In this document: positions 47,677 to 63,629 of the stretch, piece by piece
How positions within the stretch are numbered: position 1 is the first letter of the stretch
Layout of the letters: each line of letters begins with the position of its first letter
The notes under the pieces: generated by a model
What the model was told of the DNA's origin: nothing
Seen by the model: only the letters and a program-made list of their open reading frames with translations
Database searches by the model: none
Position numbers and translations under genes: made by a program
From: a bacterium
Lineage (GTDB): Bacteria; Patescibacteriota; Minisyncoccia; UBA6257; WO2-44-18
Direction: 5' to 3'
Assembly: GCA_030646995.1 (NCBI GenBank)
Contig: JAUSKF010000006.1
Location: forward strand, 8,624-72,623
Length of the DNA stretch: 64,000 nucleotides

Positions 47677-48630
47677 ATGTTAAGTGAACCGAAAGCGGTT
47701 TTAGTGACCGGGGCGACCGGTTTTGTGGGTTCTCATTTGGTGCAGAGATTGACCAATGAGGGATATCAGACCCATATCTTATTGAGAACAAAGTCCGATC
47801 CGTGGAGGATAGCGGACATTTTGCCGAAACTGAAAGCGCATAATGTGGACCTGACTGATAGAGAAGGATTAGTAAAACTGATGGAAGAGGTGAGGCCGAA
47901 CTTTATATTCCATTTGGCAACCGCCGGGGTTTATGGAGGGAAGTCTTTACCTGATCAAGATCTTTTGAAAATAAATTTGGGCGGATTCTTAAATTTGGTG
48001 GAGGCAACTAATGATCTCGAATATTCTTTGTTCGTTAACACTGGAAGTTCAAGTGAATACGGTCCCAAAAATGAAGCGATGAAAGAGGGTGATGTGTGTC
48101 AACCTTCAAATATGTATGGGATCACCAAGTTGGCCGCCACTTTATACGGCCAGGCAGTCGCTGCGACCCACAAAAAGCCGATCGTGACTTTGCGGCTTTT
48201 CTCTCCGTTCGGCTCGCACGACGATGCCAAGCGTTTTATGGCGATTGCTGTAAGCGGGGGAATAAAAAATGAGGAATTGATCCTTAGTAACCCCACAGCT
48301 GTGCGCGACTTTATTTATATTGACGATGTGATTGATGCCTATCTACAATGTATGAGCAAAGCGGAAGCGCTTCGCGGCCAGGTGCTCAATATCGGCAGTG
48401 GCATAGAGATTGGCATTCCGTCCCTGTGCGAGAAGCTAAAAGAAATAGGCAAGTTTACCAACACTATCCGTAAGGAGCCGGGTCAGCCGAGGCTGGGAGA
48501 GTCTCCGAGTTGGCAGGCGGACATCACGAAAGCCAAAAAGTTGTTGGGGTGGCAACCCAAGCGTTCGCTGGAAGAGGGGCTGGAAAAGACTATTACTTGG
48601 TTTAGGGAGAATCTTAAATCTTATGAATAA
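47677..48630 (+). CDS. NAD-dependent nucleotide-sugar epimerase/dehydratase (extended SDR)
   Basis: VLVTGATGFVGSHLV, S…YGITK catalytic motif. First gene of the 16-kb co-directional operon. Confidence 0.7.
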   Translation: MLSEPKAVLVTGATGFVGSHLVQRLTNEGYQTHILLRTKSDPWRIADILPKLKAHNVDLTDREGLVKLMEEVRPNFIFHLATAGVYGGKSLPDQDLLKINLGGFLNLVEATNDLEYSLFVNTGSSSEYGPKNEAMKEGDVCQPSNMYGITKLAATLYGQAVAATHKKPIVTLRLFSPFGSHDDAKRFMAIAVSGGIKNEELILSNPTAVRDFIYIDDVIDAYLQCMSKAEALRGQVLNIGSGIEIGIPSLCEKLKEIGKFTNTIRKEPGQPRLGESPSWQADITKAKKLLGWQPKRSLEEGLEKTITWFRENLKSYE

Positions 48631-49573
48631 CCATCTGACACAAAAGAAAATTTCCGTAGTGATTGCCTGCTACAACGAGGAGGCAAACATCCGGACCTTA
48701 TACGACCGGCTGATTAACGTTTTTAAAGACATCACCCCTCACTACGAATTTATCTACGTTGATAACAACAGCACTGATAGTTCGCCGCAGATCTATAAAG
48801 AGCTGGCGGCGCAGGACAAATCCGTTTCCGCCATATTAATGGCCAGGAATTTCGGAACTTCCGATTCTTCTTTTTCGGCCGGTACCGAATATGCCTCCGG
48901 CGACGCCGTGATCTGGATAGACGGTGACATCCAAGATCCTCCGGAGTTGATAAAAGAATTCGTGCAGAAATGGTTGGAAGGCAATGATGTTGTTTATGGC
49001 ATCCGGGCGAAGCGCGATGCCAGCTTGGTAATGAAGCTAGGTTCTAAGTTGTTCTATCGTGTCTTTAACAAAATGTCTTATATCCATATGCCGGTGGACG
49101 CGGGAGATTTCGGCTTGATGGACCGAAAGGTGGTGGACGTCTTCAATCAGCTGCCGGAGCGCGACCGGTTCGTGCGTGGATTACGGGCTTGGGTAGGCTT
49201 TAAGCAGACCGGAATACCGTACAAGCGAGCCGACCGCCAAGCAGGAGTGAGTACGCAAAAGATTTCGCGTTATTTTTACACCTTCCGCAAAGGAATCTTC
49301 TCCTTTTCTTATTACCCACTTTCCCTGATCACTTATCTGGCTGTTTTCGCTTTCTTTATTTTGGTGGCGGCAGGAATTATTTACCCGATTTGGTCCATTA
49401 TTGATCCCGCGCCTTCCGGATTCCTGACAATCTTAATGATTGTTTTGTTTATCGGCAGTGTGCAAATGATTTCTCTGGCAATCTTGGGCGAATATCTTGG
49501 AAGAATTTTTGAAGAAGTGAAGGGTCGGCCGAAGTATGTAATTCGGGAGATTATTAACGATAAAAGAAAATAA
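48623..49573 (+). CDS. GT2 polyprenyl-phosphate glycosyltransferase (ArnC/GtrB/DPM1-like) with C-terminal TM helices
   Basis: ISVVIACYNEEANI, YVDNNSTDSS, WIDGDIQDPPE (DxD region), two C-terminal TM helices. Confidence 0.75.
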   Translation: MNNHLTQKKISVVIACYNEEANIRTLYDRLINVFKDITPHYEFIYVDNNSTDSSPQIYKELAAQDKSVSAILMARNFGTSDSSFSAGTEYASGDAVIWIDGDIQDPPELIKEFVQKWLEGNDVVYGIRAKRDASLVMKLGSKLFYRVFNKMSYIHMPVDAGDFGLMDRKVVDVFNQLPERDRFVRGLRAWVGFKQTGIPYKRADRQAGVSTQKISRYFYTFRKGIFSFSYYPLSLITYLAVFAFFILVAAGIIYPIWSIIDPAPSGFLTILMIVLFIGSVQMISLAILGEYLGRIFEEVKGRPKYVIREIINDKRK

Positions 49574-51351
49574 TGAAGTTATCCGACTATTTAATTGAAT
49601 ATCTACGCGACCAAGGGGTGAAGGATGTTTTTTTGGTAACCGGAGGAGCGGTGGCGCACATCGTGGACTCTTTTCGAAACATAAAGGGCATTGATTATGT
49701 GTGCACCCAACACGAACAGCCGGCGGCGATGGCGGCAGAGGCTTACGCGCGTGTTACCGGAAATATTGGAGTGGCGATGGCGACCAGTGGGCCGGGAGCG
49801 ACTAATTTAATTACCGGAATGTGTTGCGCTTGGTTTGATTCTATCCCGACGGTTTATATCACGGGGCAGGTCAATCGCGGAGAGTCAAAAGGAAAGAGCG
49901 GAGCGCGGCAGGTCGGTTTCCAGGAAACCGACATTGTCAGCATGGTGAAGCCAATCACTAAGTACGCAGTATTAGTGGATGATCATTTGAAAATAAAATA
50001 TTACTTAGACAAAGCTTTTTATATGGCCAAAGAAGGCCGGCCCGGACCGGTTCTGATTGATGTGCCGATGGATGTCCAGCGGCAGGAAATTGACCCAGCG
50101 AAACTCAGGGGTTTTAACGCGCCGAAAGAAAAAACTGTGGATGCGGTTTTAAAAAAGAAAATTAAATCCGCCTTGGCATTGGTTGCGAAATCCCAGCGCC
50201 CGGTAATCCTTGCGGGTGGGGGAATTAAGTTAGCTAAGGGCAATGCTGAGCTTTTGGAATTCATTAAGAAAACCGGCTTCCCGGTAGTTACCTCTTGGAG
50301 CGGATTTGACCTAGTGCCGCACAACCATAAAATGTTGGTAGGGCAATTCGGAGTTTATGGAAACCGAGGAGCTAACTTTGCCGTGCAAAATGCTGATTTG
50401 ATAATTAGCGTGGGTTCTCGTTTGGATACAAGGCAAACCGGCGGCCGTCCGGCTACTTTTGCCAGAGAGGCAAAAAAAATTGTTGTGGACATTGATCAGT
50501 CTGAGCTGGATAAGCGCCGAGGTCTGACTCCTGATGTTGAGATTTGCGCCGACGCTAAGTTATTTTTGAAAGAGATGAATCAATCTCTTAAAGATATAAA
50601 AATTCCCAAGATTGATTCATGGCTGAAAAAGGCGGCTGAATGGAAAGTGAAATATCCTACAGTTCTCCCTGAATATGAAAAGCAAAAGGGCAGCGTTAAT
50701 TCCTATGTTTTCGCTAAAACTCTTTCCGAAGAAGCCGCGGCGAATTCAATCGTCCTTCCCGATGACGGAGGCAACCTTACTTGGACAATGCAGTCTTGGC
50801 AGCTGAAAGAAGGCCAGATGCTTTTTTCGGCCTTCGGGAATTCTCCGATGGGTTATTCTTTCCCGGCGGCGATTGGCGCTTCTTATGCCGCCGACCACAA
50901 ACGTCCGGTGATTTGTATCATCGGTGACGGCAGTTTCCAGATGAATATTCACGAACTGCAAACCGTTGCTCACTATAAGATTCCAATCAAGATATTTATT
51001 TTGAATAATCACTCTTACGGAATCATCAAGCAATTCCAGGATATGTATTTTGGTGGCCGACACGAGGCTTCTTCCTCGGACAAAGGCTATAGCTGTCCGG
51101 ATTTTATTAAAGTTGCTCAAGCATACGGGCTAAAGACTGTTTCTATTAATAATCATCAGGAGTTACGGAAAAAGATTAAGGAGGTGCTGGCCTCTAAGGA
51201 GGCAGTTCTATGTGATGTGTTGTTGGATGAAGGGCAAAAGTTGATGCCGAAATTGGAATTCGGAAAATCGATTGAAGACTTGATGCCTTATTTGCCGCGC
51301 GAGGAGTTTAAGAAAAATATGATCGTGAAGCCGTTGGACGAACCAAGATAA
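49573..51351 (+). CDS. Thiamine-pyrophosphate-dependent enzyme, acetolactate-synthase-like (YerE/IlvB family)
   Basis: TPP_enzyme N/M/C architecture; TPP-binding GDGSFQMNIHELQT with NN…; about 590 aa. Confidence 0.75.
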   Translation: MKLSDYLIEYLRDQGVKDVFLVTGGAVAHIVDSFRNIKGIDYVCTQHEQPAAMAAEAYARVTGNIGVAMATSGPGATNLITGMCCAWFDSIPTVYITGQVNRGESKGKSGARQVGFQETDIVSMVKPITKYAVLVDDHLKIKYYLDKAFYMAKEGRPGPVLIDVPMDVQRQEIDPAKLRGFNAPKEKTVDAVLKKKIKSALALVAKSQRPVILAGGGIKLAKGNAELLEFIKKTGFPVVTSWSGFDLVPHNHKMLVGQFGVYGNRGANFAVQNADLIISVGSRLDTRQTGGRPATFAREAKKIVVDIDQSELDKRRGLTPDVEICADAKLFLKEMNQSLKDIKIPKIDSWLKKAAEWKVKYPTVLPEYEKQKGSVNSYVFAKTLSEEAAANSIVLPDDGGNLTWTMQSWQLKEGQMLFSAFGNSPMGYSFPAAIGASYAADHKRPVICIIGDGSFQMNIHELQTVAHYKIPIKIFILNNHSYGIIKQFQDMYFGGRHEASSSDKGYSCPDFIKVAQAYGLKTVSINNHQELRKKIKEVLASKEAVLCDVLLDEGQKLMPKLEFGKSIEDLMPYLPREEFKKNMIVKPLDEPR

Positions 51352-52517
51352 TGGAGCATCAATTTTCTAAAGACGCAAAAAATTTAGTTGGCAGCCCGAT
51401 GTTCAAAATGATGGCGCGGGTGCAGGAGCTGGAAAAGTCCGGCAAGAAGATCATCCATTTTGAAATAGGCGATCCCGATTTTTCCACGCCTCAGCGTATT
51501 ACCGATGCGGCAATCGATGCTTTGAAGGCCGGAGAAACTCACTATGTGAATTCTTCCGGTATGGCCCAGCTACGCGATGCTATCTGCGATTCCACCGAAA
51601 AAGATCTGGGTTGGAGGCCGGAGCGTGAGCAGGTCGTCGTTGCCCCAGCGATTTCTTTTATTTATTTTACCGTCCGGGCGTTGGTTAATCCCGGTGAAGA
51701 AGTGATTGTAGCAGAGCCGGGCTATTCTTCATATTTTTCTACTTTTGACTTCATCGGCGTAAAGGCCGTCACCGTTCCGGTATTTGAAAAGAATAATTTT
51801 CGGCTAGCGGCGGCCGATCTGGAAAAAGCGATTACTCCAAAAACTCGGTTGGTAATTCTCACTTCTCCTAGTAATCCGACCGGGGCGATGATGACCAAGG
51901 AGAATTTGACGGCCATCTACAAGCTGGCGGAGAAGCATAATTTTTATATCTTGAGCGACGAGGTTTATAAAAAAATGACTTACGACTTGCCCTTTAGCTC
52001 CATTTCGGCCAACGACCGTTGCCAGGAACGGGTGATTATTTTGGATGGATTTTCAAAGGCTTATGCAATGACTGGCTGGCGTCTGGGTTATTCTATTGCT
52101 CCGAAGCCAATCGCTGAAAAATTAGGATTAATGATTCAGACGGTCATTTCCAATGTGCCCCCATTTATTCAATTGGCAGGCGTTGAGGCCCTTTCCGGAG
52201 ATCAGAGCAGTATAAAAGTGATGATGGATGAGTATCGAAAGAGAAAGGATGTGATGATTAAAGGATTTAATGAATTGCCTGGAGTTTCCTGCATAGATCC
52301 CGATGGAGCTTTTTATGCATTTCCGAATATTCAGAAAACCGGAATGACCAGCAAAGAATTTGCGGAATTTATTTTAGAAAAGGCCAACGTTGCGCTGTTG
52401 CCCGGCACTGATTTTGGGCCGCACGGCGAGGGATATTTACGTGTTACCTTTGCCACCTCTTTGTCTAATATTGAAGAAGGGCTTCGCCGGATGAAAGAAG
52501 CGCTGTCAAAAAAATAA
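51351..52517 (+). CDS. PLP-dependent aminotransferase, class I/II (AspB-like)
   Basis: IHFEIGDPDF, SPSNPTG, PLP-Lys SKAYAMTGWRLGY. Confidence 0.7.
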   Translation: MEHQFSKDAKNLVGSPMFKMMARVQELEKSGKKIIHFEIGDPDFSTPQRITDAAIDALKAGETHYVNSSGMAQLRDAICDSTEKDLGWRPEREQVVVAPAISFIYFTVRALVNPGEEVIVAEPGYSSYFSTFDFIGVKAVTVPVFEKNNFRLAAADLEKAITPKTRLVILTSPSNPTGAMMTKENLTAIYKLAEKHNFYILSDEVYKKMTYDLPFSSISANDRCQERVIILDGFSKAYAMTGWRLGYSIAPKPIAEKLGLMIQTVISNVPPFIQLAGVEALSGDQSSIKVMMDEYRKRKDVMIKGFNELPGVSCIDPDGAFYAFPNIQKTGMTSKEFAEFILEKANVALLPGTDFGPHGEGYLRVTFATSLSNIEEGLRRMKEALSKK

Positions 52518-52518
52518 A

Positions 52519-53823
52519 ATGGATAAAGAAATAGCGGGTTTCATAAAAAAGTATTACCAGAAGAACTTCGCGGGGAAGAAATTCGTTCCCGGCGAAACAC
52601 ATATTCCCGCTTCGGGAAAATCTTTTGATTATCAGGAGATGGTTTTGATGACGGAAGCCGTTTTGGATGGTTGGTGGACCGAGGGACGGTTCGCGGCGGC
52701 TTTTGAGAAGCAGTTGGCCGAATTCGTAGGCGTCAAACATTGCGTTACCACCAATTCCGGATCTTCGGCCAATCTTCTGGCTATTTCCGCGCTGACTTCT
52801 TATCATCTGGGCGAACGACGCTTGAAACCGGGAGATGAAGTGATTACTTTGGCAGCCGGATTCCCAACCACTATTAATCCGATAATTCTTCATCAAGCCA
52901 TCCCGGTTTTCGTGGATATTGATCTCGCGACTGCCAACGTGGATATTGGAAAATTAGAGAAAGCTTTCTCTAAAAAAACTAAAGCTGTGTTCCTTCCTCA
53001 CCATCTCGGCAATCCATTTAACGTGGCAGCCGTTCAGAAGCTTTGCAAAAAACATAAAGCCTGGCTGATAGAGGATTGTTGCGATGCTCTGGGGGCGAAA
53101 TTCGGTGGGAAGCGCGTCGGCAGCTTCGGCGACTTGTCCACCTTCAGTTTTTATGCCGCACACCACATAACCAGCGGAGAAGGAGGAGCGATAATGACCA
53201 ATGATGAGCGGCTGGCCGCCATCGTGCGTTCATTCCGTGATTGGGGTCGGGAATATTGGTTCAAGACTGGCGAGGATATCCGACGCAACAAAGGCCTGGG
53301 AACGGTTAAGCACAGCAAGCTTCCGGCTGATTACGATGATAAATTTATCTTCTCCGAGATCGGCTACAACCTGCGCCTGACCGATATGCAGGCCGCGCTG
53401 GGTTTAGTTCAACTCGGAAAGATCGGAGAGTTCGCGAAACGTCGGGAAAGCAATTTCCAATATTTGTATAAGTTGATGAGCCCGTATAAAAAGTTCTTTA
53501 TTTTGCCGGGCATGGAAAAATCCGCAGCGCCTTCTTGGTTTGGATTTTTAATGACCCTGAAGCCGGATTGCCCATTTACTCGTAAGGAATTCGTGGATTA
53601 TTTGCACAAACACAACGTTGGTACCCGTATGTTCCTCGCCGGCAACGTTATCAAGCAGCCGTACTTCCAGATATATAAGGTAAAGTTTAAAGCTGGGAAT
53701 CTTGCCAGCACGGATTACGTTTTGAGTAATTCCGTTTGGGTCGGAGTCCATCAGGCGATTGATAATGAGAGGAGGGAATATATGGGGAAAGTCTTGAAGT
53801 CGTTTTTGGCGAAGTATAAATAA
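52519..53823 (+). CDS. DegT/DnrJ/EryC1/StrS-family PLP/PMP enzyme, RfbH/DdhC-like (CDP-4-keto-6-deoxyglucose 3-dehydratase-like)
   Basis: KKFVPGETHIPASGKSFDYQEMVLMTEAVLDGWWTEGRF…VKHCVTTNSGSSANLLAISALTS matches the RfbH N-terminus; 434 aa, which is the RfbH size class. Confidence 0.7.
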   Translation: MDKEIAGFIKKYYQKNFAGKKFVPGETHIPASGKSFDYQEMVLMTEAVLDGWWTEGRFAAAFEKQLAEFVGVKHCVTTNSGSSANLLAISALTSYHLGERRLKPGDEVITLAAGFPTTINPIILHQAIPVFVDIDLATANVDIGKLEKAFSKKTKAVFLPHHLGNPFNVAAVQKLCKKHKAWLIEDCCDALGAKFGGKRVGSFGDLSTFSFYAAHHITSGEGGAIMTNDERLAAIVRSFRDWGREYWFKTGEDIRRNKGLGTVKHSKLPADYDDKFIFSEIGYNLRLTDMQAALGLVQLGKIGEFAKRRESNFQYLYKLMSPYKKFFILPGMEKSAAPSWFGFLMTLKPDCPFTRKEFVDYLHKHNVGTRMFLAGNVIKQPYFQIYKVKFKAGNLASTDYVLSNSVWVGVHQAIDNERREYMGKVLKSFLAKYK

Positions 53824-55172
53824 TGACAAAGACCATTTTTATTACGATCTTCCAAGGAGTGGAGGCGCGTAATATTCTCCGAACCGATATATATAAGGAA
53901 TTGGTTGGTCGTCCGGATGTTCGGCTGGTTCTTTTTACCGACAGTGAAGAGAAAAGGAATTATTATCAAAAGGAATTTAACGGTCCGAACGTGATCTATG
54001 AGGTCGTTGGGGAATATCACGCTCGCGGCATTCAGAAATTTTTTGGTGCAGCCAAATTCAATCTAATTAATACTGCCACGGTTGATATTAAAAGAGATAT
54101 CCTGTTTTTCAAAGAACATAGTTATCTGAAATTTTATCGGCGGTGGCTGATCAATCGGCTGTTCGCGCGCAATTTTGTTCGCCGGATAGTTCGCTGGTTG
54201 GACTGGCGGTTGGTTTCTGACCAGTTTTTTAAAAAGTATTTTGATCAATACGATCCGGATCTAGTCCTATCAGCACATCTTTTTGGTGGCACAGAGACCG
54301 CAGTGATTCGGGAGGCGCGCCGTCGTGGAGTTGTCAGCGTCGGATTGATCAATTCCTGGGATAAACTGACCGCCAGAGCAATGATCCGTTTGCTTCCGGA
54401 TTGGATGATTGTTCATAACGATTCAGTGAAAAAAGATGCGATTATTTATGCCGATATGCCAGCTGGTCGCATCTTCGTTTCCGGCATACCCCACTTCGAT
54501 CGGTATAAGACCGGGACCAGGGCTCCGCGCGATCGCTTTTTGCAAGAGATCGGCCTTGACCCCGATAAAAAAACCATTTTGTATCTTCCAGTCGGTCGCG
54601 CCGCCAGTGATGATGATGCCGATATGATGAAATTTTTTGCCGATCTGTTATCGGATAAACGTTTGAAATTTCCGACTCAGCTGATTTTTCGATTCCCGCC
54701 TAATGATGAGATTGTCGCGGAGGGAAAATTTCCAAATGGTGTAGTTATTCAAACACCGGGACGAAGATTCTCTTTGAAACGTGGATCGGATTGGGATATG
54801 AATGAGGACGATTTCCGGATCCTAGCCGACACAATTACTAGCAGTGATGTCGTGGTCGGGTATCCTTCAACGATGATGATAGATGCGGCGATTTTTGATA
54901 AGCCGGTGATTAACATTGCATATGAGCGGCGCCCGCATCCCCGAAATTTCATCCTCTGGGCTTACGAGGTGGATCACTATCGGTCCGTGCTCAATACCGG
55001 CGCCGTCCGGTTGGTTAAGAATGACGATGAATTAATTGATCAGCTGAATGCTTATTTTGCGGATCCTTCATCGGATCGTGAGGGGCGCCGTCGTTTAGTC
55101 GCGGAGCAATGCGGCGCACAGGACGGTAAGGCGGGAAAGCGGGTGGCGGATTTTTTGCTAAACCGTATTTAA
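53823..55172 (+). CDS. TagB/TagF-like polyol-/glycosyl-phosphate transferase, paralog 5
   Basis: MTKTIFITIFQGVEARNIL; VVGYPSTMMIDAAIFDKPVINIAYE; terminal QDGKAGKRVADFLLNRI. Confidence 0.5.
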   Translation: MTKTIFITIFQGVEARNILRTDIYKELVGRPDVRLVLFTDSEEKRNYYQKEFNGPNVIYEVVGEYHARGIQKFFGAAKFNLINTATVDIKRDILFFKEHSYLKFYRRWLINRLFARNFVRRIVRWLDWRLVSDQFFKKYFDQYDPDLVLSAHLFGGTETAVIREARRRGVVSVGLINSWDKLTARAMIRLLPDWMIVHNDSVKKDAIIYADMPAGRIFVSGIPHFDRYKTGTRAPRDRFLQEIGLDPDKKTILYLPVGRAASDDDADMMKFFADLLSDKRLKFPTQLIFRFPPNDEIVAEGKFPNGVVIQTPGRRFSLKRGSDWDMNEDDFRILADTITSSDVVVGYPSTMMIDAAIFDKPVINIAYERRPHPRNFILWAYEVDHYRSVLNTGAVRLVKNDDELIDQLNAYFADPSSDREGRRRLVAEQCGAQDGKAGKRVADFLLNRI

Positions 55173-55190
55173 AACGATACTATTAAACCA

Positions 55191-55943: not shown

Positions 55944-56291
55944 ATGGAAAAAATTTTGGGTATCGGTGTGGATCTTGCAGAGGTCGGGAGGTTTCGGAAA
56001 ATGCCGTTTAAGCGGCATTCCGATTTCTATAAAAAAATTTTTACCGCGTCGGAGATAAAGTATTGTTTATCGAAAGAAAATCCTTATCCGCACTTCGCCG
56101 CTCGCTTTGCCGCCAAAGAAGCGGTGCTTAAGTGTATTCAAGGTACTATTTATAAAATTTTGGATGTGGAGATTTTCAATGATAAAAATGGAGCTCCGAG
56201 TGTTAAAGTTAAAAAGCAGCGAGGAAGATTTTTGGTTTCGCTTTCGCACACCAAAGATCACGCTATTGCCACAGCAATATGGTTAAATTAA
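55944..56291 (+). CDS. acpS: Holo-[acyl-carrier-protein] synthase (4'-phosphopantetheinyl transferase, AcpS type)
   Basis: ILGIGVDLAEV, RFAAKEAVLKCIQ, SLSHTKDHAIATAI. Confidence 0.7.
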   Translation: MEKILGIGVDLAEVGRFRKMPFKRHSDFYKKIFTASEIKYCLSKENPYPHFAARFAAKEAVLKCIQGTIYKILDVEIFNDKNGAPSVKVKKQRGRFLVSLSHTKDHAIATAIWLN

Positions 56292-57757
56292 TTCAAGAAT
56301 ATTTTTCCGCATCAGCCGAGAAATTTCCGGATAAGATTGCGGTTAACTGGAAAGATCAAAATATTACTTTTGCGGAATTAGAGAGCCGGAGTAATCAGCT
56401 GGCTTTCGCTCTCAAAGGATTAGGGGTGAAGCGAGGAGATCGCATAGCTTTTTGTCTTCAAAAATCTCCCAAAGCAATTCAAGTAATTCTCGGAATTTTG
56501 AAGGTAGATGCGGCCTATGTACCTTTGAATCCCAGAGCTCCGGAAGCAAGGATCGCGCAAATGATTAACGACGCGCAGCCATCGGTTGTGATTTGCGAAC
56601 GGGCTACTAAGGCTTTGGTGAAAAGTGGCAAGGTTTTTGATTTGGACGAAAAGGCAGAAATGCTAGCAGATATGCCGGTCAGTGCGATGCATTGCAAAAA
56701 TACCTCCGTTGATCTTGCCTACATCCTTTACACTTCCGGCTCTACTGGTATTCCTAAGGGCGTAATGATTACGCATGGCAATATTATCAACGCAACCGAT
56801 TGGGCAGTAGAAGAATTTGGTATTAGCGAAAAAGATAGGATGTCTCAGCATCCGCCGTTGCACTTTGACCTCTCCACTTTTGATCTTTATTGCGCTTTTA
56901 AGGCAGGAGCGACTTTGTATTTGGTGCCGGAGGAGTTATCCTTATTCCCGGGCCAGCTTCTGAAATTTATTGAAGAGAGTAAATTAACTATTTGGAATTC
57001 TGTGCCATCAGTTTTAGTTTATCTTTGGAACTCGGGTTTAATTAAAGAGGATCGTTTATCACTGGTACGGAAATTTTTCTTCAATGGCGAAGGATTTCCG
57101 ACCCGATTTTTGGCCGAGTGGATGAAAACTTTTCCGAAAAAAGAATTCGTGAATATGTATGGGCCGACCGAGACGACCGTTCAGTGTACTTTCTATCGGA
57201 TACCAGAGGCGCCGACCGATCTGACCAAGTTGGTGCCTATCGGCAAGGCCTGTCGCAATGTGGAAGTTTTTCTTGTGGATGGAGAATTGTGTGTTGCCGG
57301 CGACGGCGTGGGGCTGGGGTATTGGAATAACCCCGAAAAGACAGCAGTCTCATTTGTGGATATTACGGGCAAGGGGCGAGTCTATAAAACCGGAGATTCG
57401 GGTCGGTTACTTCCGGATGGCAACTATGAATTTATCGGGCGGAAGGATTTTCAGGTAAAAATAATGGGCAATCGGATAGAATTGGGCGATGTGGAGGCGG
57501 CTTTGTTAGCTTTGCCATATATCGAAGACGCTGCAGCGGTTGCGATAGACGCGTCCGCAACAGGAGGGCAGGAGCTTATCGGTTTTGTGAAGTTGAAAGA
57601 AGCGAAGGAGGAATTGATGATCAAAATAGATTTGGCAAAACTTATTCCGCAATATATGGTTCCGGCAAAGATAGTAGTGCGTCCTCTTTTGCCCCGTACC
57701 AGCACCGGGAAGGTGGATCGTAATGCTTTAAAATCAGACTATGGAGATAAAAAATAA
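56279..57757 (+). CDS. Stand-alone adenylation (AMP-binding) enzyme, DltA-like carrier-protein ligase
   Basis: A3 YILYTSGSTGIPKGV, A5 YGPTETTV, A7 YKTGDSGRL, A8 GRKDFQVKIMGNRIELGDVE, A10 PRTSTGKVDRNAL. About 490 aa with no condensation domain. Confidence 0.75.
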   Translation: MVKLIQEYFSASAEKFPDKIAVNWKDQNITFAELESRSNQLAFALKGLGVKRGDRIAFCLQKSPKAIQVILGILKVDAAYVPLNPRAPEARIAQMINDAQPSVVICERATKALVKSGKVFDLDEKAEMLADMPVSAMHCKNTSVDLAYILYTSGSTGIPKGVMITHGNIINATDWAVEEFGISEKDRMSQHPPLHFDLSTFDLYCAFKAGATLYLVPEELSLFPGQLLKFIEESKLTIWNSVPSVLVYLWNSGLIKEDRLSLVRKFFFNGEGFPTRFLAEWMKTFPKKEFVNMYGPTETTVQCTFYRIPEAPTDLTKLVPIGKACRNVEVFLVDGELCVAGDGVGLGYWNNPEKTAVSFVDITGKGRVYKTGDSGRLLPDGNYEFIGRKDFQVKIMGNRIELGDVEAALLALPYIEDAAAVAIDASATGGQELIGFVKLKEAKEELMIKIDLAKLIPQYMVPAKIVVRPLLPRTSTGKVDRNALKSDYGDKK

Positions 57758-57962
57758 AGTTCGGGAATTTCTTAAAACAGAAACTCAAAAAGAAATTACC
57801 AACGATTCGGAGAATCTGATTACTTCCGGAGTGCTCGATTCTTTTTCGATGATTAAATTGATTACTTTTATTGAGAGCGAGCTAAAGATCAAGGTGGATA
57901 TGGAAAAATTATCTGCGGAAAATTTTAATTCCATCGAGAAGATAGATGAATTTCTTCGGTAA
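57741..57962 (+). CDS. Acyl/aminoacyl carrier protein (DltC-like)
   Basis: 73 aa with GVLDSFSMIKLITFIE; the Ser in the LDS motif is the phosphopantetheine attachment site. Overlaps the adenylating enzyme gene by 17 nt. Confidence 0.6.
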   Translation: MEIKNKVREFLKTETQKEITNDSENLITSGVLDSFSMIKLITFIESELKIKVDMEKLSAENFNSIEKIDEFLR

Positions 57963-58004
57963 ATAGGCTTGCCAAAAGCAGTAAATTCTCGTATATTTTT
58001 TATT

Positions 58005-59012
58005 ATGAAAAAGGCGCTTATTACTGGAATCGCCGGCCAAGACGGAAGCCATTTGGCAGAGCTTTTACTCGGAAAGGGATATGAGGTTCACGGAGTCATC
58101 CGACGTTCTTCCAGCTTCAATACCGCCCGCATCGCCCATCTTTTTAGCGATATTCATGAGCCCAACCAACGGCTCCATCTCCACTATGGAGATCTCTCTG
58201 ATGCGGCGATGATTCGTAAAATTATTTATAAGATATCCCCGGATGAGATATATAATTTGGGCGCTCAATCGCATGTGCGGGTGTCGTTCGATATTCCGGA
58301 GTACACCGCTGACATTACCGGTTTGGGCGCGCTTCGGGTTTTGGATGCAATTAAGGATTTTCAGGAACACACAGGCAAGAAAGTAAAATATTATCAGGCA
58401 TCTTCTTCGGAGATGTTTGGGGCTGCTGTTCCGCCGCAGAATGAAGAAACGCCGTTTTGGCCAAGAAGTCCGTATGGCGTGGCCAAGACCTTCGCCTATT
58501 ATACAACTAAGAATTATCGGGAGGCCTACGGAATTTTCGCAGTGAACGGAATTTTATTTAATCATGAAGGTCCGCGCCGTGGAGAGACGTTTGTGACCCG
58601 GAAAATTTCCCGAGGAGTTGCCAGAATTAAAGCCGGATTGGATAAGAAAATTTATCTGGGATATTTAGATTCGCGGAGAGATTGGGGGTATGCTCCGGAA
58701 TACGTAGAGGCCATGTGGATGATGCTTCAGCAGGACAAGCCGGAGGATTATGTTATCGGTACCGGAGAATCCCATTCAATTCGGGACTTTTTGGATGTTG
58801 CGTTCGCTCATGCCGGATTAGGAGATTGGAAGCCCTATGTGGAAATCGATCCTCGCTACCATCGTCCAGCGGAGGTAGAGAATCTGGTCGCCGATACTCG
58901 GAAGGCCAAAGAAAAACTCGGATGGGTCGCCAAGACTAAATTCCATGATTTAGTGAAGATAATGGTGGACGCTGACATTAAAGCGATATGCCCAGACAAA
59001 TTAGAAAAATAG
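58005..59012 (+). CDS. gmd: GDP-mannose 4,6-dehydratase
   Basis: [34 protein letters not shown], catalytic [18 protein letters not shown]. Start at the ATG at 58005. Confidence 0.85.
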
Positions 59013-60190
59013 GGGTTGGCACGGTGAAGATATCGCCGCTTGCCAAAAAATACGTCAACGAAGCTTTGGATAATCACAGGCTTTCTTATGGGCCGTTTTT
59101 ACGCAGATTTGAAAATGAATTCGCTAAGTTGCATGCGAGAAAATATGCGATCAGTTGCAATAGTGGCACCGGAGCCTTGCAGATCGCAATCGGGGCCTTG
59201 AAAGAAGTTCACAATTGGAAAGATGGAGACGAGGTGATCGTGCCGGCGCTGACTTTTATCGCCACTTCTAATGTGGTTATTCAAAATGGACTGAAGCCGA
59301 TCTTCGTGGATATCGATCCAGTTACCTATAATATCGACCCTTCGAAAATAGAGGAGAAGATCACCAAGCGCACCCGGGCGATCATGCCGGTCCATCTTTT
59401 CGGTCTTTCTTCCGATATGGAAGCCGTGATGAAGATTGCAAAGAAATATAAATTGAAAGTAGTGGAGGATTCTTGTGAGTCCATGTTCGCTGATCATAAG
59501 GGAATGCCTGTGGGTTCTCGGGGAGATATTTCCTGCTTCTCTACTTATGCCGCCCATCTTGTGGTCACCGGCGTCGGCGGTTTGTCGCTGACCAACAATC
59601 CGAAGTACGCCGTGGTGATGAAAAGCATGATGAATCATGGCCGTGATTCTATTTATATGAATATTGACGACGATGATAAGCTGACTGACGATCGATCAAT
59701 TTTTAAAATGGCCGACCGGCGTTTTTCTTTCGTTAGAATGGGTTACAGCCTTCGCCTAACAGAGCTGGAGGGCGCGCTTGGCGTTGCGGAGCTGGAAAAT
59801 CGGCACAGTAATCTGAAAAATCGTTCGATTAACGCCGACTACTTACTCAAAGGACTCTCGAAATTTTCCAATTTGATCCAGCTTCCTTCCTGGCCGAAGC
59901 ATTCCGAACACGCCTTTATGATGTTCCCGATAGTGGTGAAGGATAAGCAAATCAGCAGGGATAAGTTGATTACTTATCTAGAAAAGAACGGTGTTGAGAC
60001 GCGCTACATGCTTCCTTTGTTGAATCAGCCCTATTACAAAAAGATCTTTGGTGATATCGAGAAAAATTATCCGGTGGCCCAATGGATCAATAATAATGGT
60101 TTTTATATCGGTTGCCATCAGAATCTTTCCCGCAAAGATCTGGATTACGTCATCGAAGTTTTCTCTGATTTTCTTAAAAAATGGATCTAA
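58988..60190 (+). CDS. DegT/DnrJ/EryC1/StrS-family sugar aminotransferase (GDP-perosamine synthetase-like)
   Basis: [26 protein letters not shown]; sits immediately after gmd. Confidence 0.75.
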
Positions 60191-61116
60191 GTAAAAAAAA
60201 TATACTTATTACCGGCGGAGCCGGTTTTTTGGGCCGTAGGGTTTTTGACAAGTTGGTTGAGCGCGGCGTGCCGGCTGAGAAGATTTCCGTTACTCGGTCA
60301 AAAGAGTACGATCTGCGTGATGCCGCGGCCTGCAAAGAGGTCGTTAAGGGGAGGGATATCGTTATTCATCTGGCGGCCATCGTCGGCGGTATCGGCTACA
60401 ATCGTAAGCATCCCGGAGTGGCATTTTACGACAATGCGGCGATGGGGATGAATATTTTGGAGGCCTTTCGGTTGGCGGGTGGAGAAAAATTTGTGGGAGT
60501 TGGCAGTGTCTGCTCCTATCCGAAGTTTGCCCCGGTACCTTTTCAGGAAAAAGATCTATGGAACGGTTATCCGGAGGAAACCAATGCTTCTTATGGTCTC
60601 GCTAAGAAAATGATGTTAGTGCAATCGCAAGCCTATCGGCAAGAATATGGGACTAATGCCGTCCACCTTTTAATGGTGAATCTCTATGGCCCCGGTGACA
60701 ATTTTGACCCGGAGAATTCTCATGTAGTCCCGGCTCTGATTCGAAAGGTGGCGGAGGCAAAAAAGGAGGGTCGCCCATTCATAGAAGCTTGGGGCACCGG
60801 CTCTGCCACCCGTGAGTTTCTATACGTTGATGATGCTGCCGAAGCGATTGTGCTGGCGGCAGAAAAATATGACAAAGGTGAGCCAGTAAATATCGGCTCC
60901 GGTCAGGAGATGAGCATTAAAGACCTGATGGTTACTATCTGTCGGTTGATGGATTATAATGGAGAAATCCGTTGGGATAGTTCTAGGCCCGATGGCCAAC
61001 CTCGCCGCTGTTTGGATGTCGGTTTAGCTGAAAAAGAATTTGGTTTTCGGGCCAAGACTTCCATGGAAGAGGGGTTTCGTAAAACTATTAATTGGTTTTT
61101 GGAAAATCATAAATAA
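60181..61116 (+). CDS. fcl: GDP-L-fucose synthase-like 3,5-epimerase/4-reductase (Fcl/WcaG family)
   Basis: ILITGGAGFLGRRV, SVCSYPKFAPVPFQE, YGLAKKM, NLYGPGDNFDPENSHVVPALIRK. Confidence 0.8.
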   Translation: MDLSKKNILITGGAGFLGRRVFDKLVERGVPAEKISVTRSKEYDLRDAAACKEVVKGRDIVIHLAAIVGGIGYNRKHPGVAFYDNAAMGMNILEAFRLAGGEKFVGVGSVCSYPKFAPVPFQEKDLWNGYPEETNASYGLAKKMMLVQSQAYRQEYGTNAVHLLMVNLYGPGDNFDPENSHVVPALIRKVAEAKKEGRPFIEAWGTGSATREFLYVDDAAEAIVLAAEKYDKGEPVNIGSGQEMSIKDLMVTICRLMDYNGEIRWDSSRPDGQPRRCLDVGLAEKEFGFRAKTSMEEGFRKTINWFLENHK

Positions 61117-63629
61117 TGAAATTAGCGCTCTGCTTTTTAACTTATAACGAAGCGGAATGTTTGAAGAAAATTTTACCTGGCCTCGATACTTCAATGTTCG
61201 ATGAGGTTTTTGCTGTTGATGGCGGTTCTACCGATGGCACTTTGGATATCTACCAGCAGAAGAATATCCGGGTTATTCCGCAGAAGTCTCGGGGTCGTGG
61301 CGAGGCGTTTAAGTTGGCGGAAAAATCTACCGACGCGGATGCTGTCGTGTATTTTAGCCCGGACGGCAATGAAGACTCGGCCGATTTTCCTAAATTTAGA
61401 ATTTTGTTGGAGCAAGGAGCGGACATCGTGATTGCCTCTAGGATGATGAGGGGGGCTATAAATGAAGAAGATATTTCCTGGTGGCGGCCGCGCAAGTGGG
61501 TAAACAATGCCTTTAATTTGGCTGCCAATATTTTATGGAATCGTTCGGGAAAATATATTACCGACTCTATCAACGGTTTCCGGGCTCTGCGTCGGGGAAT
61601 TATTGAGAGGCTTGGTCAGGACGCCATCGGATACACTATTGAATATCAAAATACGATTCGGGCAATGAAAGCCGGTTTGAAGATCGTGGAATTTCCGACT
61701 CATGAAGGTCAGCGCCTTGCCGGTGGAACCCAGGCGCAGTCCTTGAAAGTTGGGCTGCAATTCGTCAAATGTCTTTTTCGGGAAATCGGATTAAGTTTTT
61801 CAAAAAATAGGTTCCTTTTGTTACTAGCTGCGAGCGCGGTTTTTGTTGGGTTGGTTTATGTTCTCCCGCCACTTCTAATCGAGAGAAAAATATTGAGTCA
61901 GGGGGATTCTTTTTTATTAGTCCAGCCGGAAACTTATCGGGATGAGTTTTTCAGCTATGTTCCGCGTGATCGGGAGGTTTTCGACGGGCACTTCCCGGCG
62001 GCGGGCCCCTACGCGAACGATAATCCGCAAACGCTGATGAATCAGTTCCCGCCATTGATATTCTCCGCCTTCATTTATTTGTTTGGCGGTAATGTAGAGT
62101 CCGGATATCTTGCTTTGCAATTTGTTTTTTCCGCCCTGGCTTTTTTGTTATTTTTTTCCCTAGGATCGGCAATGATGAAGTCGCGGTTGTGGGGAGTTCT
62201 GCTGGGTTTTATTGGAGTTTTCACCTATCTTGCCCAACAGATATTTTATTATGCTTATCGCAATCCGCTTGCTATCTACTTCAATAATTTCATTCCGTTC
62301 GTCCGGACGCCGATCTCGAAAATGCCGCTTGCGCGTATTGAAGACCCGCTGATCACCCTCCCTGTTTTTCTAGCCGTGCTTATCGCCTTCTATTCTTTTT
62401 GGAATAAACCCAGACGTTCTACTGCGATTATTACCGCCCTGCTTTCTGGATTGCTGGCCTACACCTATCTTCATCATTGGCTTATGATGATGGTCATCAT
62501 CGGATCAGTTTTTATTCTGGTTCTGCTGACGCGTCGCCACGACAAGGCCTTGATCAAAAATTTCTTGATTTTATTCTCCGTCGCTGGGGTAGTAGTTTTG
62601 CCATATTTGATAAATAATTTTTCTTTCCTGGCCACCCATGGAAAAGACTTTGCTTTGCGTTTGGGATTGGAGCAGGGCCGAGGTCATATTTGGCAGATGA
62701 TCTTTGAAACCCCGATCGTTTTCGACCATATCATCTACTCAATCCTTTTCGCCGTAGTTTATCTGGTTTATTTCCGCTGGCGCCCTGATAGAAAAAAAGG
62801 GCTTTTTATGGCCGGCCTTACCTTATCAATGTTCTTGGTTTGGCAGATACCGTTGATTTTGGGATCTTTTCCTCAGATCTCGCATTTTATAAAATCGGTA
62901 AGTTTAGTAGCTTTGTTGATCATCGTAAATCTCATTTATGACGTGCTGGTTGGATTGGGTAAACGGGGAAGATTGGCGGCCTTGGCGTTGGGTATTTCTT
63001 TAATCGCTGGCCTAGCAGGCAAAAAATTAGTGAATACTTTGATATTCATCAACCCGCCCGCAGGCATCGTGAAAGAGTATAGTTTTCCTAAAGAAATGTT
63101 GGATTCCTGGAGTTGGATAGATGCTAATTTGGGCAAAGAGCCGAAGATCGTTTCTTCATCTTTAGTGACCTCGCTTTATCTTGCCGGTAACACCAAGGCG
63201 CGCCCTTATCTTCCGACCGGATTTATTTCGGCTTTACCAACGACCGAATTGGAGAAAAGATTTATGTTGGTGAATAAATTATTTGGAGTTACTCCGGAGA
63301 TGTTGAGTCGGAGGATAAAAGATTTTGACGATGATTTTAGTGACATCTGCGCCGGAGAAGAGTGCTTTAAGGCCTCGCATTTTAATTTTACAAAAAACCG
63401 ATGGTACTTGGCTGAGCATGGTTGGTATATGACAGAGATGGCTTCTAGTCCGGAAAAGGCGATTGCGGGGTACCGGAAAATGAAGGCCTCTTGGAAAGAC
63501 ACTAACGCTGACTATGTTTATTATGGCCCCTGGGAAAAACAGTTTGGCGCTGCCCGTCTTTCGAGCGACCCCAATCTTAAGCAGGTCTTCAAAAATTCTT
63601 TGGTAGAGATATATCAGATCCAGAGATAG
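61116..63629 (+). CDS. Fusion protein: N-terminal GT2 (DPM1/ArnC-like polyprenyl-phosphate glycosyltransferase) plus C-terminal ~600-aa GT-C-like polytopic membrane domain
   Basis: GT2 domain KLALCFLTYNEAECL…FAVDGGSTDGT…; multi-TM C-terminal domain homologous to the ORF at 43097..44929. 837 aa. Confidence 0.7.
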   Translation: MKLALCFLTYNEAECLKKILPGLDTSMFDEVFAVDGGSTDGTLDIYQQKNIRVIPQKSRGRGEAFKLAEKSTDADAVVYFSPDGNEDSADFPKFRILLEQGADIVIASRMMRGAINEEDISWWRPRKWVNNAFNLAANILWNRSGKYITDSINGFRALRRGIIERLGQDAIGYTIEYQNTIRAMKAGLKIVEFPTHEGQRLAGGTQAQSLKVGLQFVKCLFREIGLSFSKNRFLLLLAASAVFVGLVYVLPPLLIERKILSQGDSFLLVQPETYRDEFFSYVPRDREVFDGHFPAAGPYANDNPQTLMNQFPPLIFSAFIYLFGGNVESGYLALQFVFSALAFLLFFSLGSAMMKSRLWGVLLGFIGVFTYLAQQIFYYAYRNPLAIYFNNFIPFVRTPISKMPLARIEDPLITLPVFLAVLIAFYSFWNKPRRSTAIITALLSGLLAYTYLHHWLMMMVIIGSVFILVLLTRRHDKALIKNFLILFSVAGVVVLPYLINNFSFLATHGKDFALRLGLEQGRGHIWQMIFETPIVFDHIIYSILFAVVYLVYFRWRPDRKKGLFMAGLTLSMFLVWQIPLILGSFPQISHFIKSVSLVALLIIVNLIYDVLVGLGKRGRLAALALGISLIAGLAGKKLVNTLIFINPPAGIVKEYSFPKEMLDSWSWIDANLGKEPKIVSSSLVTSLYLAGNTKARPYLPTGFISALPTTELEKRFMLVNKLFGVTPEMLSRRIKDFDDDFSDICAGEECFKASHFNFTKNRWYLAEHGWYMTEMASSPEKAIAGYRKMKASWKDTNADYVYYGPWEKQFGAARLSSDPNLKQVFKNSLVEIYQIQR

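Follow-up and report, generated by a model that had tools for sequence, protein, structure and literature searches.

The window analysed here is the whole stretch of 64,000 nucleotides, and the subject of this report is a run of genes at its positions 47677-63629 that brings together enzymes of nucleotide-sugar synthesis, an amino-acid adenylation enzyme (A domain) with its own carrier protein, and membrane glycosyltransferases. The nearest named relatives of three proteins, the A domain, a tandem-GNAT protein and a fusion of a family 2 glycosyltransferase (GT2) with a GT-C domain, come from metagenome-assembled genomes (MAGs) of Parcubacteria group bacteria and Candidatus Harrisonbacteria, in agreement with the Patescibacteria-like host suspected in the first-pass annotation of this DNA. 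A lookup of the exact A-domain sequence gave no match, whereas the homolog search returned an identical protein (P0001); the tandem GNAT and the fusion are likewise on record in identical form, all three on one NCBI MAG contig of 169 kb.

Gene organization of the 16-kb run

According to the listing of open reading frames (ORFs), the region is made up of exactly 15 consecutive ORFs on the + strand. Nine of the junctions are overlaps of 1-25 nucleotides (nt) and the other five are gaps of 1, 18, 23, 4 and 6 nt, the largest gap being 23 nt, or 42 nt if the gmd reading frame starts at ATG 58005. The description of the run as 15 co-directional genes that overlap or abut is thus borne out, and the protein families that the first-pass annotation had named were all confirmed by searches with the Pfam and NCBIfam hidden Markov models. 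The genes are as follows.

47677..48630 (+): extended short-chain dehydrogenase/reductase (SDR) of the nucleoside diphosphate (NDP)-sugar epimerase/dehydratase/reductase family; PF01370, 1.8e-48
48623..49573 (+): ArnC/PgfS/GtrB-like GT2 of the polyprenyl-phosphate sugar synthase type; PF00535, 1.7e-27
49573..51351 (+): thiamine diphosphate (ThDP) enzyme, YerE-like; three ThDP-enzyme domains and matches in the PDB
51351..52517 (+): class-I aminotransferase (AspC/AlaT type); PF00155, 2.8e-62
52519..53823 (+): E1/RfbH-type 3-dehydratase dependent on pyridoxamine 5'-phosphate (PMP); NF011936, 569 bits, cutoff 423
53823..55172 (+): TagF-like GT-B protein, here TagF4; PF04464, 1e-12; BFO_1060 family, 60 bits
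55191..55667 (+): small GNAT acetyltransferase; PF00583, 2.1e-16
55691..55939 (+): 82-aa ORF; no Pfam or NCBIfam match
55944..56291 (+): AcpS-type phosphopantetheinyl transferase; TIGR00516, 64.2 bits, passing the cutoff of 59.8
56279..57757 (+): stand-alone amino-acid adenylation enzyme, DltA-like; TIGR01733, 370 bits, cutoff 317
57741..57962 (+): 73-aa carrier protein; PF00550, 3.6e-5; 'LDSFS' motif
57969..59012 (+): Gmd, GDP-mannose 4,6-dehydratase; TIGR01472, 511 bits, cutoff 415
58988..60190 (+): putative ColD/E1-type PMP-dependent 3-dehydratase of the DegT family; His in place of the Schiff-base Lys
60181..61116 (+): Fcl/ColC-family epimerase/reductase; NF047922, 269 bits, cutoff 500
61116..63629 (+): GT2-GT-C fusion, 837 aa; PF00535; AglJ, 81 bits; AlphaFold2 (AF2) model and Foldseek

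All 15 genes recur in unchanged order on an independent Logan contig (L001), at 49-93% amino-acid identity, indicating that the 15 ORFs are real conserved genes. The sugar genes of the two loci are 81-93% identical, and between positions 53823-56291 of the window and 7522-10004 of L001 the identity is 63% for the TagF-like protein, 49% for the small GNAT and 76% for AcpS, which suggests that the 5' part of the cassette described below is evolving faster or recombining. The 82-aa ORF, for which no family was found in Pfam up to E 5 or in NCBIfam, is 71-72% identical to a called 78-aa gene of L001 and is absent from the other loci compared. For Gmd, two starts are available, TTG 57969 and ATG 58005; the L001 ortholog (335 aa) uses the latter, and ATG 58005 is likely to be the true start.

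A promoter-like site lies at 47640-47668, immediately 5' of the first gene, and no strong internal terminator was detected within the 15-gene run in the promoter/terminator scan. The sole convincing terminator-like structure near the operon is a bidirectional hairpin at 46874-46902, with a 13-bp stem containing six G-C pairs and T-runs on both sides; it is located upstream, outside the run, between the minus-strand genes 45783-46847 and 46905-47576. Co-transcription of the 15 genes is plausible and compatible with their tight packing. On the other side of the balance, the number of sites within the run was not above that in shuffled sequence, and a scan at this background level cannot decide on co-transcription. 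A promoter-like site at 57969-57997 (TTGCCA-17-TATATT), which is a consensus match only, is situated directly before ATG 58005 and could serve as an internal promoter for the genes from gmd to the GT-C fusion. The divergent gene 46905-47576 (-) encodes 223 aa, is 61% identical to the gene in the same position of L001, and gives a sub-threshold DUF218 match (E 0.004).

A probable aminoacylation cassette and its candidate transferase

The stand-alone A domain passes the amino-acid adenylation model listed above and scores 322 bits on the DltA model TIGR01734, for which the cutoff is 559.85. It keeps the Asp of motif A4 ('FDLS', Asp197) and the Lys of motif A10 ('GKVDR', Lys478), equivalent to Asp235 and Lys517 of PheA. 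In Bacillus cereus DltA (BcDltA), Asp197 is the residue that binds the amino group (PMC4176424, PMC9338922). The substrate is most likely a small alpha-amino acid, and a keto acid is unlikely since both residues that contact such an amino acid, the Asp and the Lys, are retained. The five best PDB matches of the pocket segment are all DltA; Asn269 stands at the position of Cys269 of BcDltA, and Val301 is conserved. The ten-residue specificity code, DLFSFNMVQK, does not vary among 59 homologs, the most distant of which are about 50% identical; it matched none of the Stachelhaus codes considered, and no substrate is claimed from it.

For the comparison of gene neighbourhoods, we used the loci of A-domain homologs and 44 genome loci (L007-L050) found with an alignment of the tandem GNAT; five related 20-kb loci (L001, L002, L004, L005 and L006) were examined through precomputed Pfam lists. 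The order TagF4, AcpS, A domain, carrier protein and a tandem GNAT of about 360 aa was found in all ten of the closest loci (L007-L016), and the same order in L002, L004 and L006, the small GNAT being present in some loci. In L005 the order is kept, but a FolD gene lies between the carrier and the tandem GNAT. Orthologs of TagF4 are located immediately 5' of the genes for AcpS, A domain and carrier in L002, L004, L005 and L007-L014. In the window, the tandem GNAT is found 17 kb upstream, between TagF-like paralogs, and is 35-52% identical to its cassette orthologs.

38336..39439 (+): tandem-GNAT protein, about 360 aa; displaced sixth member of the cassette

Of the 48 clusters of the tandem-GNAT family, 22 agree with an A-domain homolog in the length of their longest contig, indicating that the two lie on the same contigs. 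An AcpS gene accompanies the tandem GNAT in each of the 15 compared loci and, among the 44 that were scanned, in 16. The small GNAT of the run, to which acyl transfer had first been attributed, is optional (4/15 compared loci), and the constant candidate is the tandem GNAT, which lies outside the 16-kb run.

The sugar genes around the cassette are altogether different from locus to locus and include heptose genes, NeuB and CMP genes, sulfotransferase and 3'-phosphoadenosine 5'-phosphosulfate (PAPS) genes, or dideoxyhexose genes. In 11 of the 15 compared loci, the cassette is accompanied by NeuC-like and PseF-like genes, and the genes for the ThDP enzyme, class-I aminotransferase, E1, Gmd and ColD-like enzyme are missing from most cassette-bearing loci. 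The A-domain code is the same with or without the ThDP, aminotransferase, Gmd and DegT genes in the locus; because the code is invariant while the loci vary, the activated acid should be the same everywhere, independent of the ThDP enzyme and the aminotransferase. The first-pass annotation had proposed that an unusual acyl donor is made by these two neighbouring enzymes. This proposal is contradicted by the occurrence of the cassette without either gene in most related loci, by the invariant code in 59 homologs, and by the YerE-like nature of the best relatives of the ThDP enzyme. The joining of nucleotide-sugar synthesis to a dedicated set of AcpS, adenylating enzyme and carrier holds, the orthologs of the three being found always within glycan loci and not as a housekeeping set. 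No description of this cassette was found in the literature on Patescibacteria and the candidate phyla radiation (CPR), on DltA-like enzymes, or on carrier-protein and sugar-acylation topics.

The carrier protein shows the phosphopantetheine-attachment motif and scores below cutoff on both DltC models (NF003464, 34 bits, cutoff 68; TIGR01688, 21 bits, cutoff 52). Its best NCBIfam match is the OlsHI ornithine-lipid acyl carrier protein (ACP) at 44 bits, with a cutoff of 130. This match would favour a product other than a glycan, such as an aminolipid or a minimal metabolite of the nonribosomal peptide synthetase (NRPS) type, the A domain, carrier and AcpS being mere passengers in glycan islands; GNAT-fold enzymes that use acyl-ACP exist, namely OlsB, FeeM and LuxI. 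We consider such a product very improbable, however: scans of the window ORFs revealed no condensation, thioesterase or reductase domain, the five related loci gave no NRPS condensation domain either, and at every locus examined the cassette sits amid nucleotide-sugar and transferase genes, with the TagF-like GT-B gene first.

The structure model of the tandem GNAT is confident and is closest to Eis and NMT, at 11-14% sequence identity, both of which acylate amines and use pantetheine thioesters. The tandem GNAT is the best candidate for the aminoacyl transferase of the cassette. Several points weigh against this assignment: the evidence that ties the protein to aminoacyl transfer is synteny; its GNAT motifs are equally compatible with acetyl-CoA and with a thioester on a carrier protein; and its distant homologs (25-29% identity; Verrucomicrobiota and Acidobacteriota) are mostly without a nearby A domain. 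The protein may instead be an N-acetyltransferase that acetylates a sugar from acetyl-CoA, the aminoacyl group being passed on by another protein (the TagF-like protein, the small GNAT or an enzyme that escaped recognition) or modified on the carrier before its transfer. The R-x-x-G-x-G motif fits CoA and the closest folds, Eis and NMT, use acyl-CoA; a further point for such a function is the weakly FkbH/HAD-like gene that follows the tandem GNAT in L004 (12815-14386, 523 aa; FkbH_N and HAD matches at E 0.01-0.04), enzymes of the FkbH type being known to load glyceryl units on carrier proteins. This alternative is nevertheless unlikely, given that the carrier gene directly precedes the tandem GNAT in the ten closest loci, that AcpS recurs near it among the scanned loci at the frequency given above, and that no other acyltransferase is constant in the cassette.

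As acceptors, the candidates are amines bared by polysaccharide deacetylases, or the amino groups of CMP-activated sugars; in L006, a polysaccharide deacetylase gene lies immediately 5' of AcpS. A difficulty for an amine acceptor is that no Lys-type DegT aminotransferase, which would form an amino sugar, was seen in the window. Homologs of the tandem GNAT were also found in two Nanoarchaeota MAGs (L017 and L018; 34-37% identity, AcpS nearby), and the label Nanoarchaeota is likewise attached to one homolog of the A domain (P0084, 42%). CPR bacteria and DPANN archaea may share these genes, or the MAGs may be mis-binned.

TagF4 matches PF04464 at 48 bits (cutoff 22) over its C-terminal half only, and its best NCBIfam match is the BFO_1060 glycosyltransferase family. 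A chemistry for TagF4 was also sought among PDB structures and given up, the ortholog profile matching TarL only, at E 7e-4, which is too weak for assignment. Enzymes of the TagF/TarL kind have catalytic His residues and act on CDP-glycerol or CDP-ribitol; neither TagD nor TarIJ is encoded in the window. The TagF-like protein of the window is no more similar to that of L001 than to that of the more distant L004.

Five TagF-like genes in the window raise the question of a Dlt-like system, in which TagF paralogs would build a teichoic-acid-like polymer and D-alanine would be esterified to it outside the membrane. In agreement with such a system, the pocket segment of the A domain matches only DltA structures, the carrier is weakly DltC-like, some A-domain homologs are named D-alanine--poly(phosphoribitol) ligase by NCBI, and a TagD-like cytidylyltransferase is present in L004. 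However, neither DltB (MBOAT), DltD nor an AlmG-like (LpxL-type) acyltransferase was detected in the window scans or in the five related 20-kb loci; the equivalog cutoffs of DltA and DltC are missed; and the TagF-like proteins match TarL at no better than E 7e-4, their best NCBIfam match being the BFO_1060 glycosyltransferase family. The conserved partner is moreover a soluble tandem GNAT, implying transfer in the cytoplasm, and we therefore regard D-alanylation of the Dlt kind as improbable. Cytoplasmic transfer by the cassette is the best-supported reading, because DltB, DltD and AlmG were not found and no transmembrane segment is predicted in any cassette protein. The more specific proposal, that Patescibacteria and some DPANN archaea possess an undescribed, cytoplasmic and DltB-independent route by which one fixed small amino acid, perhaps D-Ala-like, becomes amide-linked to a surface amino sugar through a tandem GNAT that takes an aminoacyl-S-carrier protein in place of acyl-CoA, a counterpart of teichoic-acid D-alanylation in ultra-small episymbiotic bacteria that is combined here with two cluster-free 3-dehydratase routes to rare dideoxy or branched sugars, is put forward tentatively, as a possibility that the present evidence leaves somewhat short of even odds.

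Predicted sugar-forming and membrane-transfer modules

The last part of the run begins with a triad of Gmd, the DegT enzyme and the Fcl-like reductase, the DegT gene at 58988 being flanked by the Gmd equivalog upstream and the Fcl-family gene downstream. In the first-pass annotation, the DegT enzyme was taken as perosamine-synthetase-like. When it is aligned with the Caulobacter perosamine synthetase (3BN1), a His is found at the position of the Schiff-base Lys. The segment around that Lys is 'FSFFGNKIIT' in 3BN1 (FSFFGNKIITTGEGG), and the Lys is presumably Lys186 in the Caulobacter numbering. The same column corresponds to His220 of Yersinia E1. The replacement of the catalytic Lys by His separates the 3-dehydratases E1, ColD and SpnQ from the aminotransferases, and ColD lacks the [2Fe-2S] cluster, its PMP being regenerated by glutamate (PMC8987622). 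No C-x-C-x7-C stretch is present after the His in the 58988 product, as read from its sequence. E1 and ColD align with this product end to end in one piece, while perosamine synthetase aligns in two pieces.

The reductase reaches membership of its model at the family level, being below the cutoff of NF047922, and its best PDB matches are GDP-L-fucose synthases (215 bits). Its Ser-x-Cys and YxxxK motifs are intact, and the residue that matches His179 of E. coli GDP-fucose synthase is a Gly. This position was considered as a discriminator between ColC and Fcl and dropped, the best-matching solved Fcl (7LL6) having Asn there. Together, Gmd, the 58988 enzyme and the Fcl-like reductase are predicted to form a colitose-type route to a guanosine diphosphate (GDP)-3,6-dideoxyhexose, the stereochemistry of which is not readable from sequence. 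ColD uses GDP-4-keto-6-deoxy-D-mannose and has Gmd and ColC as its neighbours, and the context of the 58988 gene fits this pattern.

The rival for this branch is the model put forward at first, in which GDP-perosamine is N-acylated in the manner of Vibrio cholerae O1, with an unusual keto or amino acid that the ThDP enzyme and the aminotransferase build, the adenylating enzyme activates, the carrier bears and the small GNAT transfers. All the gene families that it calls for are present and adjacent, and among PDB structures the DegT enzyme scores highest with perosamine synthetase, 194 bits, against 159 bits for ColD over the N-terminal domain. This difference in score speaks against the assignment as ColD, which depends on one active-site residue together with the gene context. 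The perosamine model is nevertheless for the most part refuted, since a His stands where the Schiff-base Lys would be: by the rule cited above, an enzyme of this type would not make perosamine. With a 3-dehydratase of the His type, the triad branch would yield no amino group to acylate, and since no 4-amino sugar would come from this branch, the analogy with V. cholerae O1 loses its acceptor. In addition, most loci have the cassette without ThDP, aminotransferase, Gmd or DegT genes, the A-domain code is the same regardless of them, the small GNAT is optional, and the ThDP enzyme is YerE-like. The model is hardly tenable on this evidence, and the colitose-type route is retained for the triad.

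The other modules extend upstream of the run, where three genes are directly relevant.

42172-43113 (+): polysaccharide deacetylase; PF01522, 1.2e-22; overlaps the start of the GT-C paralog
43097..44929 (+): stand-alone GT-C paralog, 610 aa; 33% identity over 638 columns, E 9e-104
44983..45786 (+): RfbF-like glucose-1-phosphate cytidylyltransferase; TIGR02623, 292 bits, cutoff 300.25

The E1-like product of the 52519 gene passes the RfbH equivalog, and its His aligns to His220 of Yersinia E1 (3BCX; FYAAHHITSGEGG). The [2Fe-2S] ligands of E1, counted in the 3BCX alignment, are C193-X57-C251-X1-C253-X7-C261, and only the equivalent of C193 survives; at C251, C253 and C261 the 52519 product has Y, F and R, respectively, its segment EYWFKTGEDIRR being aligned to DCYCAPGCDNTC of the Yersinia enzyme. 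No FNR-like or 2Fe-2S reductase domain, as expected for a reductase of the E3 type (AscD), was found in the scanned ORFs of the window. The loss of the cluster Cys together with the missing E3 implies ColD-like chemistry, and we infer that the enzyme performs a ColD-like hydrolytic reaction on a cytidine diphosphate (CDP)- or other NDP-4-keto-6-deoxyhexose. The SDR at 47677 carries the motifs 'GSSSEYG' and YxxxK, reaches no NCBIfam equivalog and is a candidate 4,6-dehydratase or 4-ketoreductase. A difficulty for the CDP-hexose assignment is the CDP-glucose 4,6-dehydratase: two nearby SDRs score at most 75 bits on TIGR02622, and the substrate of the E1-like enzyme is uncertain because no clear enzyme of this type was identified.

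The ThDP enzyme has the three-domain fold of acetolactate synthase (ALS). Its PDB matches are 5AHK (376 bits), which we take to be the YerE homolog of Pseudomonas protegens, JanthE (8RPH, 369 bits) and plant acetohydroxyacid synthase (AHAS, 306 bits). JanthE is a YerE-like carboligase that accepts ketones (PMC12188165). In the YerE reaction, an acyl anion is added to the C4 ketone of a CDP-3,6-dideoxy-4-hexulose. Neither IlvN nor IlvC was seen in the window scans. In L004, a split ThDP enzyme of the transketolase type is encoded in its place, between the genes of the GT2 and of the class-I aminotransferase, compatible with a general requirement that two carbons be transferred to a keto sugar beside the E1-like dehydratase. 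For the ThDP enzyme, sugar branching is thus more likely than synthesis of an acyl donor. The class-I aminotransferase at 51351 reaches no NCBIfam equivalog; its gene accompanies that of the E1-like enzyme in L001, L004 and L010 and does not co-vary with those of the carrier-protein set. It may, at a low to moderate level of confidence, regenerate glutamate for the two cluster-free PMP dehydratases and supply a 2-oxo acid.

The GT2 at 48623 scores 234 bits on PgfS and 153 bits on ArnC, both below cutoff, and its hydrophobic segments at residues 235-288 correspond to C-terminal transmembrane helices. In the 837-aa fusion, the GT2 part, similar to AglJ and dolichyl-phosphate hexose transferases, occupies residues 1 to about 225, and the GT-C part residues from about 226 to 837, with at least ten hydrophobic segments. 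No model of Pfam (up to E 5) or NCBIfam matches the GT-C family. The stand-alone paralog at 43097-44929 is 33% identical to residues 231-837 of the fusion. An AF2 model of the GT-C part, built with 11 homologs, reached a predicted local distance difference test (pLDDT) of 84 and a predicted template modelling score (pTM) of 0.86, and the first 36 PDB matches in Foldseek were all GT-C enzymes (STT3, PglB, AglB, DPY19, AftA, AftD, ArnT, ALG3, PimE, Pmt and Emb), with template modelling (TM) scores of 0.40-0.52 for the best 27 or so (STT3, PglB, AglB, DPY19, AftA/D and ArnT). GT-C enzymes carry a catalytic acidic residue in the first extracytoplasmic loop, and an invariant Asp is found in 'YRDEFF', about 15 residues past the first long helix, with the topology deduced from the sequence. 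Fifteen clusters of this small GT-C family were found, six fused to a GT2 and nine stand-alone, and GT-C paralogs adjoin the cassette in L004 and L011. The terminal GT2-GT-C fusion recognised in the first-pass annotation is thus confirmed at the level of fold, and fold and architecture likewise support the suggestion that a sugar is loaded onto polyprenyl phosphate and transferred outside the membrane. Two-step systems of a GT2 and a GT-C enzyme, such as ArnC/ArnT, GtrB/GtrC and PgfS/PgfM, are well known. The placing of the deacetylase gene at 42172-43113 before the stand-alone GT-C gene recalls ArnD, which acts before ArnT.

With the 16-kb run as its 3' third, a surface-glycan island extends over about 50 kb, from roughly 13.6 to 63.6 kb in the window. 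The upstream part of the island includes GT4 glycosyltransferases, methyltransferases, a Wzx-like flippase, a NeuC-like hydrolysing 2-epimerase, a PseF-like cytidylyltransferase, a GFO/IDH/MocA oxidoreductase and two polysaccharide deacetylases. The five TagF-like (PF04464) paralogs, 21224-22570, 37045-38364, 39399-40799, 40809-42161 and 53823-55172 (+), fall into at least three orthologous types, each of which is kept in other Parcubacteria loci. Relatives carry a formyltransferase or NeuB gene adjoining the cassette; a tblastn search gave no match in the window for NeuB, formyltransferase, transketolase, cupin or the FkbH-like protein of L004, indicating that the nonulosonic-acid and formylation steps of the relatives are not encoded in the window.

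Other genes of the island include an SDR at 28422-29576 (+), which scores 475 bits on the UDP-sulfoquinovose synthase model NF041015, below the cutoff of 575, so that the glycan of this Parcubacteria island may include a sulfonated sugar. Two radical SAM enzymes are encoded at 26232-28343 (+) and 34734-36023 (+), one being a 703-aa protein with a B12-binding domain and the other having a SPASM domain; the L005 locus is also bordered by a B12-radical SAM gene. Genes for a dehydrogenase similar to phosphoglycerate dehydrogenase (PGDH), serine hydroxymethyltransferase (SHMT) and FolD lie in a row at 29636-32646 (+), and a second FolD-like gene lies at 150-935 (+). The first 12 kb of the window are occupied by housekeeping and other genes, including those for ClpB, a class-V aminotransferase and RNase H-like proteins. 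In the 1250-aa protein at 8960-12712 (+), an N-terminal peptidoglycan-binding domain is the sole recognised feature. The tRNA and Rfam scans of the window found nothing.

Proposed pathway and comparison with known systems

Gene families, active-site residues, folds and synteny are what the analysis shows, and from these we infer which substrates are used, how the steps follow one another, and the nature of the acceptor and of the amino acid. On this basis we propose, with a probability of about 0.55, that the locus is a mosaic of four surface-glycan modules, including a cytoplasmic aminoacylation cassette, in a MAG of the Parcubacteria (Patescibacteria). In the first module, the RfbF-like cytidylyltransferase would provide the entry to a CDP-hexose branch with the SDR, the Fe-S-free E1 and the YerE-like carboligase, leading to a 3,6-dideoxy and possibly C4-branched (yersiniose-like) sugar. 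The YerE-like enzyme would add the two-carbon branch to a 4-keto sugar, and the aminotransferase would recycle glutamate and give a 2-oxo-acid donor, for instance pyruvate from alanine, to the YerE-like enzyme. In the cassette, AcpS would prime the carrier and the A domain would load one fixed small alpha-amino acid as a thioester, after which the tandem GNAT would move the amino acid to an amine (a hydroxyl being less likely) of a sugar linked to a nucleotide or a lipid; the GT-B protein of the TagF type, on the basis of synteny only, may handle or provide the aminoacylated sugar. In the third module, Gmd, the ColD-type 3-dehydratase and the Fcl/ColC-like reductase would give the colitose-type GDP-3,6-dideoxyhexose. 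Finally, the two pairs of GT2 and GT-C enzymes, GT2 48623 with GT-C 43097 and the fused pair at 61116, would load sugars on polyprenyl phosphate inside the cell, and an acceptor on the outer side of the membrane would receive them.

The surface chemistry of Patescibacteria, which live on host cells, is almost uncharted. The locus predicts a glycan that has 3,6-dideoxy sugars, possibly also branched ones, that bears an amino-acid substituent and to which GT-C enzymes transfer sugars outside the membrane. It also reveals a compact cassette across many Parcubacteria genomes, in which a pair of DltA/DltC type is tied to a soluble tandem GNAT and not to DltB/DltD. If the proposal is true, the cassette would provide a third mechanism, after Dlt and AlmEFG, for the aminoacylation of envelope glycoconjugates, and the first GNAT known to use an aminoacyl-carrier-protein donor in glycan modification. 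The Fe-S-free E1 homolog is a natural variant useful for mechanistic comparison between E1 and ColD.

Among the known systems, the Dlt system of Firmicutes shares with the cassette an A domain that stands alone and whose pocket is of the DltA kind (Asp197, and position 269 at its floor; PMC4176424, PMC9338922), a small dedicated carrier primed by AcpS, and a cell-envelope glycopolymer as the target. In contrast, the cassette lacks DltB and DltD, its fixed partners are the soluble tandem GNAT and a TagF-like GT-B protein, Asn replaces Cys269 in its A domain, and its host is a Patescibacterium. In the AlmEFG system of V. cholerae El Tor, a DltA-like ligase and a DltC-like carrier modify lipid A with glycine; as proposed for the cassette, a small amino acid is delivered in the cytoplasm, here to a glycolipid, and neither DltB nor DltD takes part (PMC4278540). 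The two differ in the transferase, AlmG being a membrane acyltransferase of the LpxL type and the cassette candidate a soluble Eis/NMT-like tandem GNAT, and in the acceptor, which for the cassette would be a sugar or glycan and not lipid A. Compared with the free-standing tandem GNATs Eis and NMT, the cassette gene is strictly linked to the carrier, and its donor is predicted to be an aminoacyl-S-carrier protein.

In the rfb region of V. cholerae O1, RfbD and RfbE make perosamine and RfbKLMNO make an ACP-borne tetronate. It resembles the present locus in having Gmd beside a DegT enzyme, an ACP and an AMP-binding enzyme, and in the logic of carrier-mediated N-acylation. Unlike O1, the window has a DegT enzyme of the His dehydratase type and an activator that is an amino-acid A domain instead of an acyl-CoA-synthetase type, and no RfbM-, RfbN- or RfbO-like genes were recognised in the window. 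The GDP-L-colitose pathway of E. coli O55/O111, Y. pseudotuberculosis and V. cholerae O139 consists of the same Gmd, ColD and ColC families in the same order as the triad, with a middle enzyme that has His for Lys and no Fe-S motif (PMC8987622), although the similarity to ColD is moderate (159 bits) and the window reductase is below the Fcl cutoff. The yersiniose A (CDP-3,6-dideoxyhexose) pathway of Y. pseudotuberculosis likewise has an RfbF-like enzyme, E1 with His220 and a YerE-like enzyme in one locus. In the window, by contrast, E1 lacks three of the four cluster Cys, no E3 and no clear RfbG were found, and a class-I aminotransferase is inserted; in the relative L004, a transketolase type replaces the ThDP enzyme. 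As in ArnC/ArnT, GtrB/GtrC, PgfS/PgfM, CsbB/YfhO and PpgS/Rv3779, a GT2 with C-terminal transmembrane helices is combined with a GT-C enzyme, whereas the GT-C family of the window is without a Pfam or NCBIfam model and is fused to a GT2 in 6 of its 15 clusters. The sugar modules are thus members or variants of known pathways, and the first two steps of the cassette are similar to those of Dlt and AlmEFG, while the candidate for the later transferase differs.

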